A stretch of DNA of 64,000 nucleotides. Origin: Pseudomonadota bacterium. Lineage in GTDB: Bacteria; Pseudomonadota; Gammaproteobacteria; Burkholderiales; Rhodocyclaceae. The stretch lies in contig JAKOTN010000078.1 in assembly GCA_029776255.1 (NCBI GenBank), positions 1,860 to 65,859 on the forward strand, read 5' to 3'. A program made the position numbers and the translations under genes. Positions 41,068 through 46,132 of this stretch are shown piece by piece. Within the stretch, counting starts at the first letter, position 1; each line of letters starts with the position of its first letter. The notes below the pieces were generated by a model. It was given only the letters and a program-made list of their open reading frames with translations, ran no database searches and was not told the origin of the DNA.

Positions 41068-42285
41068 CTATCCTTTCACACAAACCACCTGCCGCAACGT
41101 ATGCACCACTTCCACCAGATCGCGCTGGGCGTGCATCACGGCGTCGATGTCCTTGTAGGCCATCGGGATTTCGTCGATCACCTTGCTGTCCTTGCGGCAT
41201 TCGACGTGGGCGGTGGCCTTGATTTGATCGTCCACGGTGAAGCGGCGGCGGGCTTCGTTGCGGCTCATGGCACGGCCGGCACCGTGGCTGCACGAGCAGA
41301 AGGCGTCCTCGTTGCCAAGGCCGCGCACGATGTAGCTGCGGGCGCCCATCGACCCCGGAATGATCCCGAGTTCGCCCTTCTTCGCCGACACCGCCCCCTT
41401 GCGGGTGACCAGTACCTCGGCCCCGAAATGGGTTTCGTGCTGCACGTAGTTGTGGTGGCAGTTCACCGCCTCGGCGTCGGCCGTGAACGGCTTGGCGACG
41501 ATCTGGCGGGCGGCGGCGATCACGTTCGCCATCATCACGTCGCGATTACGGCGAGCGTAGTCCTGCGCCCAACCCACGGCTTCCACGTAATCGGCGAAGT
41601 GCGCGGAGCCTTCCTCGAAATAGGCCAGATCCTTGTCCGGCAGGTTGGCGATGTGCTGGCGCATGTCGGCCTGAGCCAGTTCGATGAAATGGCTACCAAT
41701 GGCGTTTCCCACCCCGCGCGAACCGGAATGCAGCATGAACCAGACCTGATCGGCCTCGTCCAGGCACACTTCGATGAAGTGGTTGCCGGTTCCCAGCGTT
41801 CCAAGATGCTTGTAATTGTTTGTATTTATCAGGCGCGGGTACTTCTCCGTGATGCGCGCGAAGCCCGGCGACAGCACAGACCACATGGCGTCGACGGCGT
41901 CCGGCGGGTTTTCCCAGGAACCCTTATCGCGGCGACCGCGGGTCATCGTTCGCCCGTGCGGCACCGCCACCTCGATGGCCGAACGCAGACCGTGCAGATT
42001 GTCCGGCAGATCGCCGGCGGTCAGCGTGGTGCGCGCCGCCATCATCCCGCAACCGATATCGACGCCGACCGCCGCCGGGATGATCGCGCCCTGCGTCGGG
42101 ATCACGCTGCCGATGGTCGAGCCTTTACCGAGATGCACGTCCGGCATCACCGCCAGGTGGCGGAAGATGAACGGCATTCGGGCCGTGTTCATCAGCTGTT
42201 TGCGGGCGTCGTCCTCGACCGGCACGCCTTCGGTCCACAGCTTGATCGGCTTGCCGTCGGTCACGTCTTGTACTTGATACGTCAT
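41068..42285 (-). CDS. rtcB: RNA-splicing ligase RtcB
   Basis: AVMPDVHLGKG.TIGSV, VGVDIGCG, GTLGTGNHFIE, HSGSRG, HHNY, IPGSMG, SHGAGR, DEIPMAYK. Confidence 0.96.
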   Translation of the reverse strand: MTYQVQDVTDGKPIKLWTEGVPVEDDARKQLMNTARMPFIFRHLAVMPDVHLGKGSTIGSVIPTQGAIIPAAVGVDIGCGMMAARTTLTAGDLPDNLHGLRSAIEVAVPHGRTMTRGRRDKGSWENPPDAVDAMWSVLSPGFARITEKYPRLINTNNYKHLGTLGTGNHFIEVCLDEADQVWFMLHSGSRGVGNAIGSHFIELAQADMRQHIANLPDKDLAYFEEGSAHFADYVEAVGWAQDYARRNRDVMMANVIAAARQIVAKPFTADAEAVNCHHNYVQHETHFGAEVLVTRKGAVSAKKGELGIIPGSMGARSYIVRGLGNEDAFCSCSHGAGRAMSRNEARRRFTVDDQIKATAHVECRKDSKVIDEIPMAYKDIDAVMHAQRDLVEVVHTLRQVVCVKG

Positions 42286-42350: not shown

Positions 42351-42562
42351 TGGTGGACACGGCGGGACTCGAACCCGCGGTAAGCCGCCACCGGGCATTA
42401 CTCCGATGTGCGGAGAAGCTTTAAACGCGCATCATCCCAAGAACCTTACGCAGACCCCGGGACTGCATCTTCAAATACCGCTCTCCACTAAAGCTTTCGG
42501 TTTTACCCTTCACCGGTCTCGTCACTCGTTTACCGGCCGCTCGCCGTTTCGCGTTCGTGCCC
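42351..42562 (-). ncRNA. 212-nt tRNA(Ala)/tmRNA-like RNA
   Basis: 5' GGGCACG pairs with 3' CGTGTCC (G3.U70), A73, CCA; T-arm GCGGG-TTCGAGT-CCCGC. Confidence 0.6.
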
Positions 42563-42623: not shown

Positions 42624-43760
42624 CTACTTCGCCAACGTCACCAGCCCGTTCAGCACCTGATCGAGTCCCCCGAAAACCGAGATCCGGTCGATACGTTCGG
42701 CCACCCGTTCCAGGGTTTCGAGTTCTTTCAAGCGCAAGGCGGTCGGGTTGTCTTCCATGACCTTGGCGGTGTTGAGCAGCGAACGGGTCGCCGCCGTTTC
42801 CTCGCGGCGACGGATCACGTTGGCTTCGGCGGCCTTACCCGCTTCCACCACTTGCGCCAGAATGGCTTTCATCTCACCCGGCAGCACGATGTCCTTGACG
42901 CCGACACCACCGATTTCCAGGCCGAAACCGGCCAGTTTCTTGGCGACATGGTCGCTTACCACCTCGTCGATCAACTGCTTGTTTTCCAGCAGTTCGTCGA
43001 GGTTGCGCGTGCCCACCGCCGCCCGCAGGCCAAATTGCAGCTCGCGATAGAGGTGTTCGGCCGGTTTGGCCAGCTTGTCGAAGGCGGTGCTCACGTCGTC
43101 GAAACGCCAGGTGGCGGCGAGGTTGAGGCGCAGCCCCACCTTGTCGCGGGTTAGGATTTCCTGCCCGCTCACTTCCATGCTCTGCCAACGCATATCCACC
43201 AATTCCAGATGCAGATCGCGATTGAAGCGCCAGTAGGCGCTCACGCCCGGCGACAGCAACGGTTGTTGCACGCCATCGATGCGCAGCAGGCCGACATGCG
43301 CCGCCGGTACCTGCACGACGAACACTCCGTTCAACCCCGACACCGGACGACCACGCAGCGACGGCTGCAACAGGCGTTTCACCATCTCCGCCGGCAACGC
43401 GGCGCCGTCTCGCAGATCGATTTTTTCGAGCCGCTGCGCCAGCAAGCCGCGCCAGTAGAAACACCGGGCCGCCGGCGGCAACACTTCGACCAGCACATCG
43501 TTTTCATAGCGCAACCCGACCTCGTCCTCGCTCAACTCCATGCCAACGAAATGGCGTTCGGCTTCGGCCGGATCGTTCTGGCGCAAGTAATCGACGAGGT
43601 CGGTATCGAGCATCGGCGTATCGGTGCGCCACACGGTCAGCGACAGTTCGTTGAACGGGTCGAACAGGAGGTGGCGACCCGGATTGAGGAGGCGCTGGAA
43701 ATCGCCGTTGCGCAGCAAGGCCGCACGCTCGTTTTTCTTCACGATGAAACGCTTCAACAT
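42624..43760 (-). CDS. SPFH/band-7 (slipin) family protein
   Basis: EVSGQEILTRDKV.LRLN, LQFGLRAAVG.R.LDELL, GVKDIVLPGEMK, RRREETAATRSLLNTAK...NP. Confidence 0.85.
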   Translation of the reverse strand: MLKRFIVKKNERAALLRNGDFQRLLNPGRHLLFDPFNELSLTVWRTDTPMLDTDLVDYLRQNDPAEAERHFVGMELSEDEVGLRYENDVLVEVLPPAARCFYWRGLLAQRLEKIDLRDGAALPAEMVKRLLQPSLRGRPVSGLNGVFVVQVPAAHVGLLRIDGVQQPLLSPGVSAYWRFNRDLHLELVDMRWQSMEVSGQEILTRDKVGLRLNLAATWRFDDVSTAFDKLAKPAEHLYRELQFGLRAAVGTRNLDELLENKQLIDEVVSDHVAKKLAGFGLEIGGVGVKDIVLPGEMKAILAQVVEAGKAAEANVIRRREETAATRSLLNTAKVMEDNPTALRLKELETLERVAERIDRISVFGGLDQVLNGLVTLAK

Positions 43761-44046
43761 TTTTCTTCTCCCTATTCTCAAGCGTCATGGTCAAACTTCG
43801 TCGGCGAATTCTGCCGGCTCGCGCCGGTCCGGCGGATGCCCCGGTCGGCTCTGACGGGGAAGCTTCCATGCCCGACATCCGGCGTCGCGCAAATCCGCGA
43901 CAGCCTGTCGTGGTTGCGCGGCATCGGCCGTCAGGCAGCGGACGCCCTGCCGCCGAAGCGGACCCGGGCACCGGGCCGAACCGGCGGCGGGTGCTTGCGC
44001 CTTCCGCAGCCGGCGGGTACTGCAATATCACTGTCGTGAAAGGACA

Positions 44047-44120
44047 GTCTTGGAGCGGGATTCGAACCCGCGACAGACCGTTTACAAGACGGTTGCTCTA
44101 TCCGACTGAGCTATCCAGTG
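44047..44120 (-). tRNA. tRNA-Thr(TGT)-like element with degenerate acceptor stem (pseudo-tRNA or tRNA mimic)
   Basis: TAGCTCAGTCGGATAGAGC D-arm, ACCGT-CTTGTAA-ACGGT anticodon arm, GCGGG-TTCGAAT-CCCGC T-arm; only 4 of 7 acceptor pairs, no CCA. Confidence 0.7.
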
Positions 44121-44121
44121 A

Positions 44122-44165
44122 TGGGGTGTTCGGGAATCGAACCCGAGCGCGCCACCAGGCGCCCC
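44122..44165 (-). ncRNA. miniature tRNA-like element (acceptor plus T-arm, no anticodon arm)
   Basis: GGGGCGC...TCGGG-TTCGATT-CCCGA-ACACCCC-A. Confidence 0.5.
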
Positions 44166-44290
44166 ACTATCGCTCTCTCGCGACGGCGGCATACGGCGGA
44201 ATGACCGGATTTTTCCAGATTCCACCGCACCGGCAGGATTCAAACCCCTAACCCGTCGGCCAGACCGCAAGTCGGCGATGTTTTCTTCTA

Positions 44291-44306
44291 AGCGAAAGCC
44301 GTGCCA
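44291..44306 (-). promoter_or_regulatory. sigma54 (-24/-12) promoter of the rtc operon
   Basis: TGGCACG-gctt-TCGCT on the minus strand, divergent from rtcR, with an AT-rich tract upstream. Confidence 0.8.
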
Positions 44307-44482
44307 GGAATTCGAAATAAATATAATGCACTGTATTAAGTGTATTTTTTAATTTTCCCGCGCGCCGGCCATGGAAATAGTGGATTAATTGATATACGTT
44401 TTTATATTTCTGGATAACGCGGAGGCACTGCAACCATGACTCGACCTTTTGTCCGCCAGCGATCGCTGACCCGGGGCGCATC

Positions 44483-46132
44483 ATGAAGAAAACCGTTGTC
44501 ATCGGTTTTCTCGGCACTCAACTGGATTACACCGGCAAAGGCAGCCAGCGCTGGGAAAAGTGGCGCCCGACGGTCGCCCTGTGCCAGCAGGATGACCTGA
44601 TCGTGCACCGTCTGGAAGTGATTCACGACGCGCGCAGCCGTGGACTGGCCGAACGCGTCGGCAACGACATCGCCCAAATCTCGCCGGAAACCGACTTCAA
44701 GCGCGTGGAACTGGAATTGCGCGATCCATGGGATTTCGAAGAGGTGTATACCGCCCTGCACGACCTCGCCCGCGCCTACCCATTCGATACGGAAAACGAG
44801 GATTACCTCATCCACATCACCACCGGCACCCACGTGGCGCAGATTTGCTGGTTTCTGCTCGCCGAGGCGCGTTACCTGCCGGCACGTCTGTTGCAAACCT
44901 CGCCGCCGCGCAAGACGGAGGTCGCCGACAGCGTCGGCCGCTACGAAATCATCGACCTCGACCTGTCGCGTTACGACCGTATCGCCCAGCGTTTCGCCCG
45001 CGAACGCGACGACGGCCTGTCTTTTCTCAAATCCGGCATCGCCACGCGCAACCCGGCATTCAACCGGATGATCGAGCAGATCGAGCGGGTTGCCGGTCGT
45101 TCGCGCGCGCCGATGCTGCTGGTCGGCCCGACCGGCGCCGGAAAGTCTTTCCTGGCTCGCCGCGTTTTTGAATTGAAACGCCAGCGCCAACAACTGAAAG
45201 GGCGTTTCATCGAAGTGAACTGCGCCACTCTGCGTGGCGATTCGGCGATGTCCACACTCTTCGGACACAGCAAGGGCGCGTTCACCGGTGCGCAACAGGA
45301 CCGGCCGGGACTGTTGCGGTCCGCCGACGGCGGTCTGCTCTTTCTGGATGAAATCGGCGAGCTCGGTCTCGACGAACAGGCGATGTTACTAAAAGCCATT
45401 GAAGAGAAACGATTTTTCCCCTTCGGTAGCGATCTCGAGGCACGCAGCGACTTCCAGTTGATCGCCGGAACGCATCGCGACCTGCGGCAACGGATGCGGC
45501 AAGGAAAATTCCGGGAAGACCTCTACGCGCGGATCAACCTGTGGACTTTCGATTTGCCCGGCCTCGCCGCCCGCCCGGAGGATATCGAACCCAACCTCGA
45601 TTACGAACTGGAGCGTTTTGCCGCGCAAAGCGGCCAGCAGGTGCGCTTCAACATCGAGGCCAAGCGCCGTTATCTGGCTTTCGCGACCTCGGCGGCGGCT
45701 CGCTGGCACGGGAATTTCCGCGAACTCGGCGCGTCCCTCACCCGCCTGGCCACGCTGGCCCCCGCCGGGCGTATCACCGAAGCCGATGTTGCCGACGAAA
45801 TCGCCCGTCTCACCACTGCCTGGAGCGACGAACCGAATACCGACGACGCTTGCGCCCGGCTGCTCGCCGGGGACGCGGATAAACTCGATCTCTTCGACCG
45901 CTGCCAGCTCAACACCGTCATCGCCGTCTGCCGTACCAGCCATAGTCTGTCGGAAGCCGGGCGTCGCCTGTTCGCCGTCTCCCGCGCCGAGAAAAGACAA
46001 AGCAACGACGCGGACCGACTACGCAAATACCTGGCGCGCTTTGCTCTCGGATTTGAAATGCTGCGTGACGAGATTATCCAAACAAAACAGCGCTCGGAAA
46101 GGCCAGCGCGCGAGCACTCCGAAATCGCGTGA
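44483..46132 (+). CDS. rtcR: sigma54 enhancer-binding regulator RtcR (CARF + AAA+ + HTH)
   Basis: TVVIGFLG..LD...RWEKWRPTV, DPWDFEEVY, HITTGTHVAQIC, GPTGAGKS, GAFTGA, NDADRLRKYLARF. Confidence 0.93.
   Translation: MKKTVVIGFLGTQLDYTGKGSQRWEKWRPTVALCQQDDLIVHRLEVIHDARSRGLAERVGNDIAQISPETDFKRVELELRDPWDFEEVYTALHDLARAYPFDTENEDYLIHITTGTHVAQICWFLLAEARYLPARLLQTSPPRKTEVADSVGRYEIIDLDLSRYDRIAQRFARERDDGLSFLKSGIATRNPAFNRMIEQIERVAGRSRAPMLLVGPTGAGKSFLARRVFELKRQRQQLKGRFIEVNCATLRGDSAMSTLFGHSKGAFTGAQQDRPGLLRSADGGLLFLDEIGELGLDEQAMLLKAIEEKRFFPFGSDLEARSDFQLIAGTHRDLRQRMRQGKFREDLYARINLWTFDLPGLAARPEDIEPNLDYELERFAAQSGQQVRFNIEAKRRYLAFATSAAARWHGNFRELGASLTRLATLAPAGRITEADVADEIARLTTAWSDEPNTDDACARLLAGDADKLDLFDRCQLNTVIAVCRTSHSLSEAGRRLFAVSRAEKRQSNDADRLRKYLARFALGFEMLRDEIIQTKQRSERPAREHSEIA

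Follow-up and report, generated by a model that had tools for sequence, protein, structure and literature searches.

RNA-repair operons encoding the ligase RtcB and the cyclase RtcA are widespread, with SPFH proteins, RlaP, Y RNAs and tRNA mimics as their accessory parts. Burroughs and Aravind, writing in Nucleic Acids Research in 2016, reportedly associated in their abstract the SPFH/Band-7 family with "a novel tRNA-like molecule" and with a new nucleotidyltransferase that is now called RlaP. Wang et al. (bioRxiv 10.1101/312249) present the b7a-tRNA (band 7-associated tRNA), with reference to Burroughs and Aravind (Nucleic Acids Res 2016;44:8525), as a predicted non-coding RNA that is strongly tRNA-like and adjoins Band-7 and RtcB, and according to this 2018 preprint it had yet to be validated experimentally; Rfam 15 contains no family for it. 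Another tRNA-like RNA of such operons is YrlA (RF02553), a Y RNA encoded in rsr-yrlBA-rtcBA operons (Chen et al. 2014, PMC4201824). In Pseudomonas aeruginosa PAO1, a gene annotated as "tRNA-Arg4" (PA4581.1) lies between rtcR and the rtc cluster, has no CCA and was detected by qRT-PCR, where it reached about half of the canonical tRNA level (PMC13637947), and it is among the genes with the highest expression increase in a late cystic-fibrosis isolate (PMC8743555). We compare with these systems a tRNA-like element found in a Rhodocyclaceae contig, in a stretch of 64,000 nucleotides that was analysed as a whole and is called the window below.

The tRNA-like element and the leader that carries it

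In the 64-kb window, ARAGORN reports a single tRNA-like gene, tRNA-Thr(tgt), on the minus strand at 44047-44120, and the tRNA family RF00005 is the sole Rfam family that reaches its gathering score there (54.4 bits, E 6e-9, the gathering score being 29). The Rfam match spans model positions 4-67 of 71, so that the outer acceptor pairs of the element are left unmatched. The element, a b7a-type tRNA mimic referred to as module B, scores 113.9 bits with a covariance model built from its relatives (R1, described below) and is further supported by covariation in two independent sets of loci; it is far beyond chance. On the minus strand its letters read CACTGGA-TA-GCTC-AGTCGGATA-GAGC-A-ACCGT-CTTGTAA-ACGGT-CTGTC-GCGGG-TTCGAAT-CCCGC-TCCAAGA-C, composed of the acceptor 5' strand (44120-44114), the D arm (44111-44095), the anticodon arm (44093-44077, with its loop at 44088-44082 and TGT at 44086-44084), the variable loop (44076-44072), the T arm (44071-44055) and the acceptor 3' strand (44054-44048). 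Direct reading bears out the initial annotation of this element, in that the D stem (GCTC/GAGC), the anticodon stem (ACCGT/ACGGT, loop CTTGTAA) and the T stem (GCGGG/CCCGC) are fully paired, and in that the acceptor strands CACTGGA and TCCAAGA form four of seven pairs, the inner TGGA/TCCA, with pairs 1-3 being C.A, A.G and C.A. The acceptor is followed by C and then TGTCC, and CCA is not encoded.

Module B sits, as had likewise been proposed, in the RtcR/sigma54 leader of an rtc operon. A sigma54-type promoter, TGGCAC-GGCTT-TCGCT (-24/-12), can be read from the minus strand at 44291..44306 and would place the transcription start near 44280, and thus module B about 160-230 nt into a leader of about 520 nt. 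Some 50 related loci likewise have the motif TGGCAC-N5-TCGC[AT], separated by about 165 nt from the first T-loop, which lies downstream and belongs to module A (see below). A simple consensus scan of 43700-44500 found neither a sigma70-like promoter nor a terminator-like site. The first gene of the operon, encoding an SPFH/Band-7 protein (slipin; 42624..43760, Pfam Band_7, E 1e-27), starts 286 nt downstream of module B on the same strand, and the minus strand further carries the RNA ligase gene rtcB (41068..42285, Pfam RtcB, E 3e-129) and genes for a barstar-domain protein (41064-40585, Pfam Barstar), the nucleotidyltransferase RlaP (40413-39499, Pfam RlaP) and the cyclase RtcA (39991-38456, Pfam RTC and RTC_insert). 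The divergent rtcR gene, encoding a sigma54 activator with a CARF domain, is on the plus strand at 44483..46132 (Pfam RtcR, E 1e-87, and Sigma54_activat). The best matches of the SPFH protein come from the Azonexus/Dechloromonas area of the Rhodocyclales, and its AlphaFold2 model, computed from an 18-sequence alignment, had a pLDDT of 50, too poor for spotting an RNA-binding surface. The sigma54 promoter of the window, together with a homolog discussed below, suggests that module B is co-transcribed with the SPFH-rtcB genes.

The leader is conserved over about 500 nt and holds a 5' domain, modules A and B, a hairpin termed hairpin C and a long 3' domain. The 5' domain (44167..44280, minus) consists of a closing helix, a long irregular hairpin and a small TCGC/GCGA hairpin, and RNAalifold applied to 20 leaders predicts its helices 7-11/119-123 and 56-104 with compensatory changes. 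The 3' domain (43813..44023, minus), delimited by alignment A4 and RNAalifold, bears a conserved GCAGTACCCGCCGG box and is drawn together by a long-range helix between GCCGGC at 44014-44009 and GCCGGC at 43818-43813, which encloses a GCAA-loop hairpin and a long variable stem; among the same 20 leaders it corresponds to alignment columns 307-517 (44014-43813 in the window) and shows many compensatory pairs. The T arm of module A, the cloverleaf of module B with a 4-bp acceptor and hairpin C are also recovered by this prediction. In the Rfam search of the window, none of the leader beyond module B, the 3' domain included, matches a family.

Conservation of the fold and variability of the anticodon loop

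The occurrence of module B was surveyed in 80 reference-genome loci, fetched via an alignment of SPFH orthologs (63-94% identity) and covering Rhodocyclales, Burkholderiales, Neisseriales-like taxa and Pseudomonas, and in a second, independent set of 80 metagenome loci, likewise obtained through SPFH orthologs in this identity range. The covariance model R1, built from the 65-sequence alignment A2, matches 73 of the 80 genome loci at 71-121 bits, with the element located about 250-350 nt upstream of the SPFH start, and gives strong matches in 71 of the 80 metagenome loci, whereas bona fide tRNAs in the same genome loci score 62 bits or less. Seven genome loci are without a strong match: L009 and L035 have too little upstream sequence, the former retaining a partial, 5'-cut match, L034 (Chitinimonas) and L036 (Paraburkholderia) match weakly, and L051, L056 and L060 (Pseudomonas) do not match. 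The leader of the last five may be diverged or reduced. A sigma54 box is present in all five, and in the three Pseudomonas loci it lies nearer the SPFH gene, about 450 nt upstream. ARAGORN gives a tRNA-like call at the equivalent place in most of the 80 genome loci, and the "anticodons" that it reports at the module B position all differ, ranging over Met, Ile, Val, Thr, Asn, Lys, Glu, Arg and Leu, besides many unreadable loops. In the rtcR-SPFH spacer of a P. aeruginosa genome (GCA_034577295.1, locus L081:2656-2729), the element scores 95.5 bits with R1 and is called tRNA-Arg(ACG) by ARAGORN; by position and published description it fits PA4581.1, which on this evidence is a member of the mimic family. 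The initial annotation had allowed for an element that is not transcribed; the P. aeruginosa homolog is transcribed, since PA4581.1 belongs to the family and was detected by qRT-PCR.

In alignment A2, taken over the cloverleaf and hairpin C, 89.7% of the cells are paired, as against 76.5% in shuffles, none of 500 of which reaches the observed value, and about 35-45% with slid partners. The D stem GCUC/GAGC is invariant and the T stem almost invariant, and compensatory changes are found at each of the five pairs of the anticodon stem. Pairing in the acceptor falls off towards its outer end: 62-63 of 65 sequences retain pairs 4-7, 43 of 64 retain pair 3 and 28 of 64 pair 2, and pair 1 forms in 12 of 65. 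The metagenome set repeats this pairing pattern. The comparison of arms with acceptor across rtc loci, suggested with the initial annotation, thus yields arms that are kept and outer acceptor pairs that are mostly unpaired. A direct parse of 66 loci gives acceptors of 4-7 pairs, with all seven in only 7 loci, all of them Burkholderia, and no N-CCA after module B (0/66). From this pattern it follows that the broken acceptor without CCA is a family character, not local decay. It had been argued from the window that random decay would hardly spare three arms and strike only the acceptor, the opposing case being homologs with a full acceptor stem and CCA; the element turns out to be conserved and covarying at a fixed leader position across relatives, most of which share the short acceptor and none of which has the CCA.

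The call of a tRNA by both ARAGORN and Rfam would agree with an ordinary tRNA-Thr(UGU) gene, either intact or recently decayed, or with the remnant of an integration site. However, only four of seven acceptor pairs form and CCA is not encoded, positions 1-72 and 2-71 are C.A and A.G where the identity set of Escherichia coli ThrRS needs G1-C72 and C2-G71, the orthologs carry other anticodons or none, and a conserved, covarying element at a fixed place in an mRNA leader is unlike a remnant. We consider this explanation extremely improbable as a whole, and conservation and covariation rule out a decayed tRNA or att remnant.

The module B loop has seven nucleotides in 25 of the 66 parsed loci and is a tetraloop in 23 (GAAA, GCAA, UUCG, GCGA and others), the rest having 3, 5 or more nucleotides. 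Among the 24 seven-nucleotide loops that close a 5-bp stem, C32 is found in all, U33 in 20 and A38 in 21, with a varying triplet that is most commonly CAU (11 of 24), and orthologous elements at the same position carry CAT, AAT, AAG, GGT, ACG, tetraloops and more. The UGU triplet occurs only in the window and in one close metagenome relative, L087, which has the same loop CUUGUAA; the window loop is two substitutions away from CUCAUAA. These loop statistics make Thr(UGU) a lineage quirk, and the Thr(UGU) identity and the "intact anticodon arm", put forward initially as features of the element, are not family-wide, a tetraloop or other non-anticodon loop being present in more than half of the members. 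Since the stem covaries and the triplet varies, selection acts on the stem, not on a codon-reading triplet. Module B is under purifying selection on its shape, not on its anticodon. The retention of C32, mostly U33 and A38 in the seven-nucleotide loops nevertheless implies that some lineages, that of the window included, may still use an anticodon-like loop.

These loops bear directly on the possibility that the mimic acts as a decoy, substrate or signal, in which anticodon nucleases would cut its loop, so that the toxin is soaked up or fragments with cyclic phosphates arise for religation by RtcB or for sensing by the CARF domain of RtcR. [quoted passage not shown] On the other hand, more than half of the family, having tetraloops or 3- to 5-nt loops, is unable to mimic an anticodon, so that serving anticodon nucleases as substrate or decoy is unlikely to be its general role; moreover, the mimic is still found where rtcR or the sigma54 promoter is lacking (see below), and the analogue YrlA of Salmonella is uncut by the SOS-induced nuclease. 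Diversifying selection on the 3-nt triplet cannot be told from drift, since only a handful of the fetched loci have an SPFH protein 86-93% identical to that of the window and even these close relatives are already too diverged for such a comparison. A decoy or RtcR-ligand role is possible for lineages with anticodon-like loops, including that of the window, but it cannot be the general function of the family, and as an account of module B we judge it improbable. What stands of the non-chargeable decoy originally proposed is a selected, non-chargeable-looking mimic; the anticodon-nuclease decoy is unsupported family-wide, given the variable loops.

Module A, hairpin C and further elements of the leader

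Upstream of module B lies a mini tRNA-like unit, module A (44119..44165, minus), recognised from the T-loop pair and from acceptor-stem statistics. In the window it has acceptor-like strands GGGGCGC (44165-44159) and ACACCCC (44129-44123), a 12-nt linker and the T arm TCGGG-TTCGATT-CCCGA (44146-44130, minus), followed by A-TCA, in place of which N-CCA is found in many relatives. Nearly every locus has a second T-loop, located 70-76 nt upstream of that of module B, the T-loop pair being present in 68 loci, and the acceptor-like stem of module A is perfect (7/7) in 21 of 57 loci, as against 4.6% with shuffled 3' strands. Across loci the linker has 12-30 nt, and the T arm is followed by nine bases before U8 of module B. 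Within these nine junction bases, CCA occurs in 43 of 66 loci, typically as N-CCA-YUGGA, its CA being positions 1-2 of the module B acceptor strand; in Burkholderia, positions 1-2 pair, the module B acceptor counts seven pairs and CCA is absent. In the loci of Pseudomonas species other than P. aeruginosa (L043-L077), module A forms a complete second tRNA-like unit, with a tetraloop as its cap. Rfam gives weak tmRNA and mascRNA-like matches to module A.

A further mini tRNA-like unit was observed on the minus strand at 42351-42562, between the SPFH gene and rtcB, with the T arm GCGGGTTCGAGTCCCGC followed by CGTGTCC-A-CCA. Of the 80 genome loci, just four (L004, L006, L011 and L014) share this insert, and the unit is an optional extra module outside the family core.

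Hairpin C (44030..44048, minus), formed by ACTGTC (44048-44043) and GACAGT (44035-44030) around CTTTCAC, directly abuts the acceptor 3' strand and is supported by covariation and RNAalifold, with both sides changing at five of five pairs (CUGUC/GACAG, CUGCC/GGCAG, UUGGC/GCCAA, AGCCC/GGCUU) and about 83% of the cells paired. A role of hairpin C as an intrinsic terminator is unsupported by the consensus scan, and a U-tract is inconsistent among relatives. From the window, it had been proposed that ATCACTG (44122-44116) pairs with CAGTGAT (44033-44027) to close the tRNA body in a larger stem, in competition with the ACTGTC/GACAGT hairpin. Both pairs of segments are indeed found there and compete for the same CAGT, and it is the hairpin that covaries across the family. 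The closing stem fared less well: among 20 Rhodocyclales-type leaders it is paired in 67% of the cells as against 66.5% in shuffles, with 209 of 500 shuffles equalling it, and only its CUG/CAG part is conserved, the CAG belonging to hairpin C. Moreover, it would unzip two of the four conserved acceptor pairs and disrupt hairpin C, both of which are covarying helices. Lacking covariation and absent from the RNAalifold prediction for the 20 leaders, the closing stem is rejected as a family feature.

In a separate observation, the junction N-CCA (here A-UCA, 44119-44122) is complementary to UGG-N (here UGA-U, 44027-44030) just after hairpin C, as it is in L001, L002, L004, L006, L007, L010, L082, L083, L085 and L100. 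The outer 4 bp of this pairing form in about 11 of the 17 nearest Azonexus/Dechloromonas-like relatives, with C-G, U-A, A-U and U.G variants at one position. It is possibly a clade-specific feature, without statistical weight, and recalls T-box leaders that read the NCCA end of a tRNA.

The arrangement of the two modules could also be explained by a purely cis-acting role, the modules serving as entry sites for RNase P, RNase Z or RNase E at which the leader is cut to leave a stable 5' end of the SPFH-rtcB mRNA, with nothing acting in trans. In line with such a role, the modules lie within the leader and have no promoter or terminator of their own in the consensus scan, and module A, with its 7-bp acceptor and the CCA at the module B junction in 43/66 loci, resembles part of a tandem tRNA precursor. 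The invariant D stem and nearly invariant T stem across beta- and gamma-proteobacteria, however, go beyond what a processing signal would require, YrlA, a trans-acting RNP RNA, has these D and T arm sequences as well, and PA4581.1 accumulates in P. aeruginosa to about half the canonical tRNA level (PMC13637947). We therefore regard an exclusively cis-acting function as unlikely. Rather doubtful is also a processed multi-module leader, from which module A would be freed with a genome-encoded N-CCA 3' end by a cut at the 5' edge of module B, leaving module B as the protein-bound mimic. In a leader of this kind, the near-identical D and T arms of module B and YrlA could mean that the Ro60/Y-RNA and SPFH/b7a branches of RtcB operons show one elbow to a shared reader, RtcB or the CARF domain of RtcR, and such a reader, if real, would bring two classes of RNA cofactor together in a single mechanism.

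Genomic partners, proposed role and relation to known systems

Of 81 loci, 55 have a divergent rtcR gene upstream and 70 encode RtcB downstream of the SPFH gene. Sixteen Burkholderiales loci (Comamonadaceae-like) have no rtcR within 2.5 kb upstream and no sigma54 box and yet keep modules A and B, with RtcB downstream of SPFH in 13 of the 16. The persistence of the modules where rtcR and the sigma54 box are absent indicates that their constant partners are the SPFH and RtcB genes, not RtcR, and it weakens the earlier idea that the mimic supplies the RtcR ligand.

Most of the 16 rtcR-less loci have an array of ordinary tRNA genes upstream, with about 9-12 genes in the largest. In Roseateles sp. 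NT4 (L040:213-2000), for example, an array of about 9-12 ordinary-looking genes is located 0.8-2 kb upstream of the modules, SPFH and rtcB on the same strand, after which come a small ORF with a SEC-C motif, tRNA-Gln and an ORF for an HNH endonuclease. The same type of array is seen in L063, L066, L067, L075, L078, L033, L029 and L054, all of which, like L040, are without rtcR and the sigma54 box. Such a combination of a tRNA array with repair genes looks like a spare-tRNA plus RNA-repair island.

On balance, we think it quite likely that module B is a non-decoding mimic, co-transcribed within the leader of about 500 nt, that serves as an RNA partner of the SPFH/RtcB machinery. In the predicted mechanism, the leader, starting here at the presumed RtcR-dependent sigma54 promoter, would carry module B ahead of the genes for SPFH/Band-7, RtcB, RlaP and RtcA, and the transcribed module would retain the elbow of a tRNA, made up of the D and T arms, together with a stem of anticodon type and an acceptor helix of reduced length. 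Recognition may then proceed via the L-shape and the invariant D and T stems, in the way that tRNA-handling proteins recognise their targets. By analogy with YrlA and Ro60/Rsr, module B might act as a scaffold, cofactor or gate for the SPFH protein and RtcB. It may be released by tRNA-processing enzymes, module A often ending in N-CCA exactly where module B begins. The comparative data narrow what to test: selection on the mimic concerns its shape, its companions are the SPFH and RtcB genes rather than RtcR, and a second mini tRNA-like module, often ending in N-CCA, accompanies it. PA4581.1, currently mis-annotated as tRNA-Arg, offers an experimentally tractable member of the family. As long as such elements lack an RNA family model of their own, annotation pipelines will go on naming them tRNAs with arbitrary anticodons.

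Comparison with the described systems places the window element next to the b7a-tRNA. Like the latter, as far as it is characterised in the preprint, the element has a tRNA-like cloverleaf, adjoins a Band-7/SPFH gene and lies beside RtcB in an RtcB-centred repair operon that also holds RlaP. By this secondary description and by genomic context, it is a further b7a-tRNA and nothing new in kind. PA4581.1 resembles it in lying between rtcR and the SPFH gene and in lacking CCA, and differs in its loop, ACG (Arg) instead of UGU, and in an acceptor helix of 6 pairs. PA4581.1 is probably not a decoding tRNA, and other public "tRNA" annotations between rtcR and SPFH genes are likely to be mislabelled in the same way across genomes. 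With a genuine tRNA-Thr(UGU), module B shares the cloverleaf, canonical D and T loops, U8, G18G19, C48 and the 7-nt loop CUUGUAA, but it is unlike such a tRNA in having four acceptor pairs, no CCA, no promoter of its own and an unconserved anticodon, and in lying within an mRNA leader.

The comparison with YrlA is closer in sequence than in architecture. YrlA is likewise a non-decoding tRNA mimic in an RtcR-controlled RtcB operon, and the consensus of its D arm (UAGCUCA..GGUAGAGC) and T arm (GCGGGUUCGA.UCCCGC) is nearly identical to that of module B. Membership of module B in the YrlA family was considered and rejected, the RF02553 score being 20.8 bits against a gathering score of 69, and no TROVE/Ro60 (rsr) gene was found by Pfam in the window operon (SPFH, RtcB, barstar, RlaP, RtcA). 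In clear contrast to module B, which has the normal D-AC-T order, YrlA is circularly permuted, its T arm coming first and its D arm last with the acceptor stem-loop between them, carries a Ro60-binding end stem and adjoins rsr. The weak YrlA match itself covers 44095-44147 on the minus strand, that is, the T arm of module A, a 16-nt junction and the D arm of module B, in the permuted T-to-D order of YrlA, and hints that YrlA-type Y RNAs may have arisen from the junction of tandem tRNA-like modules.
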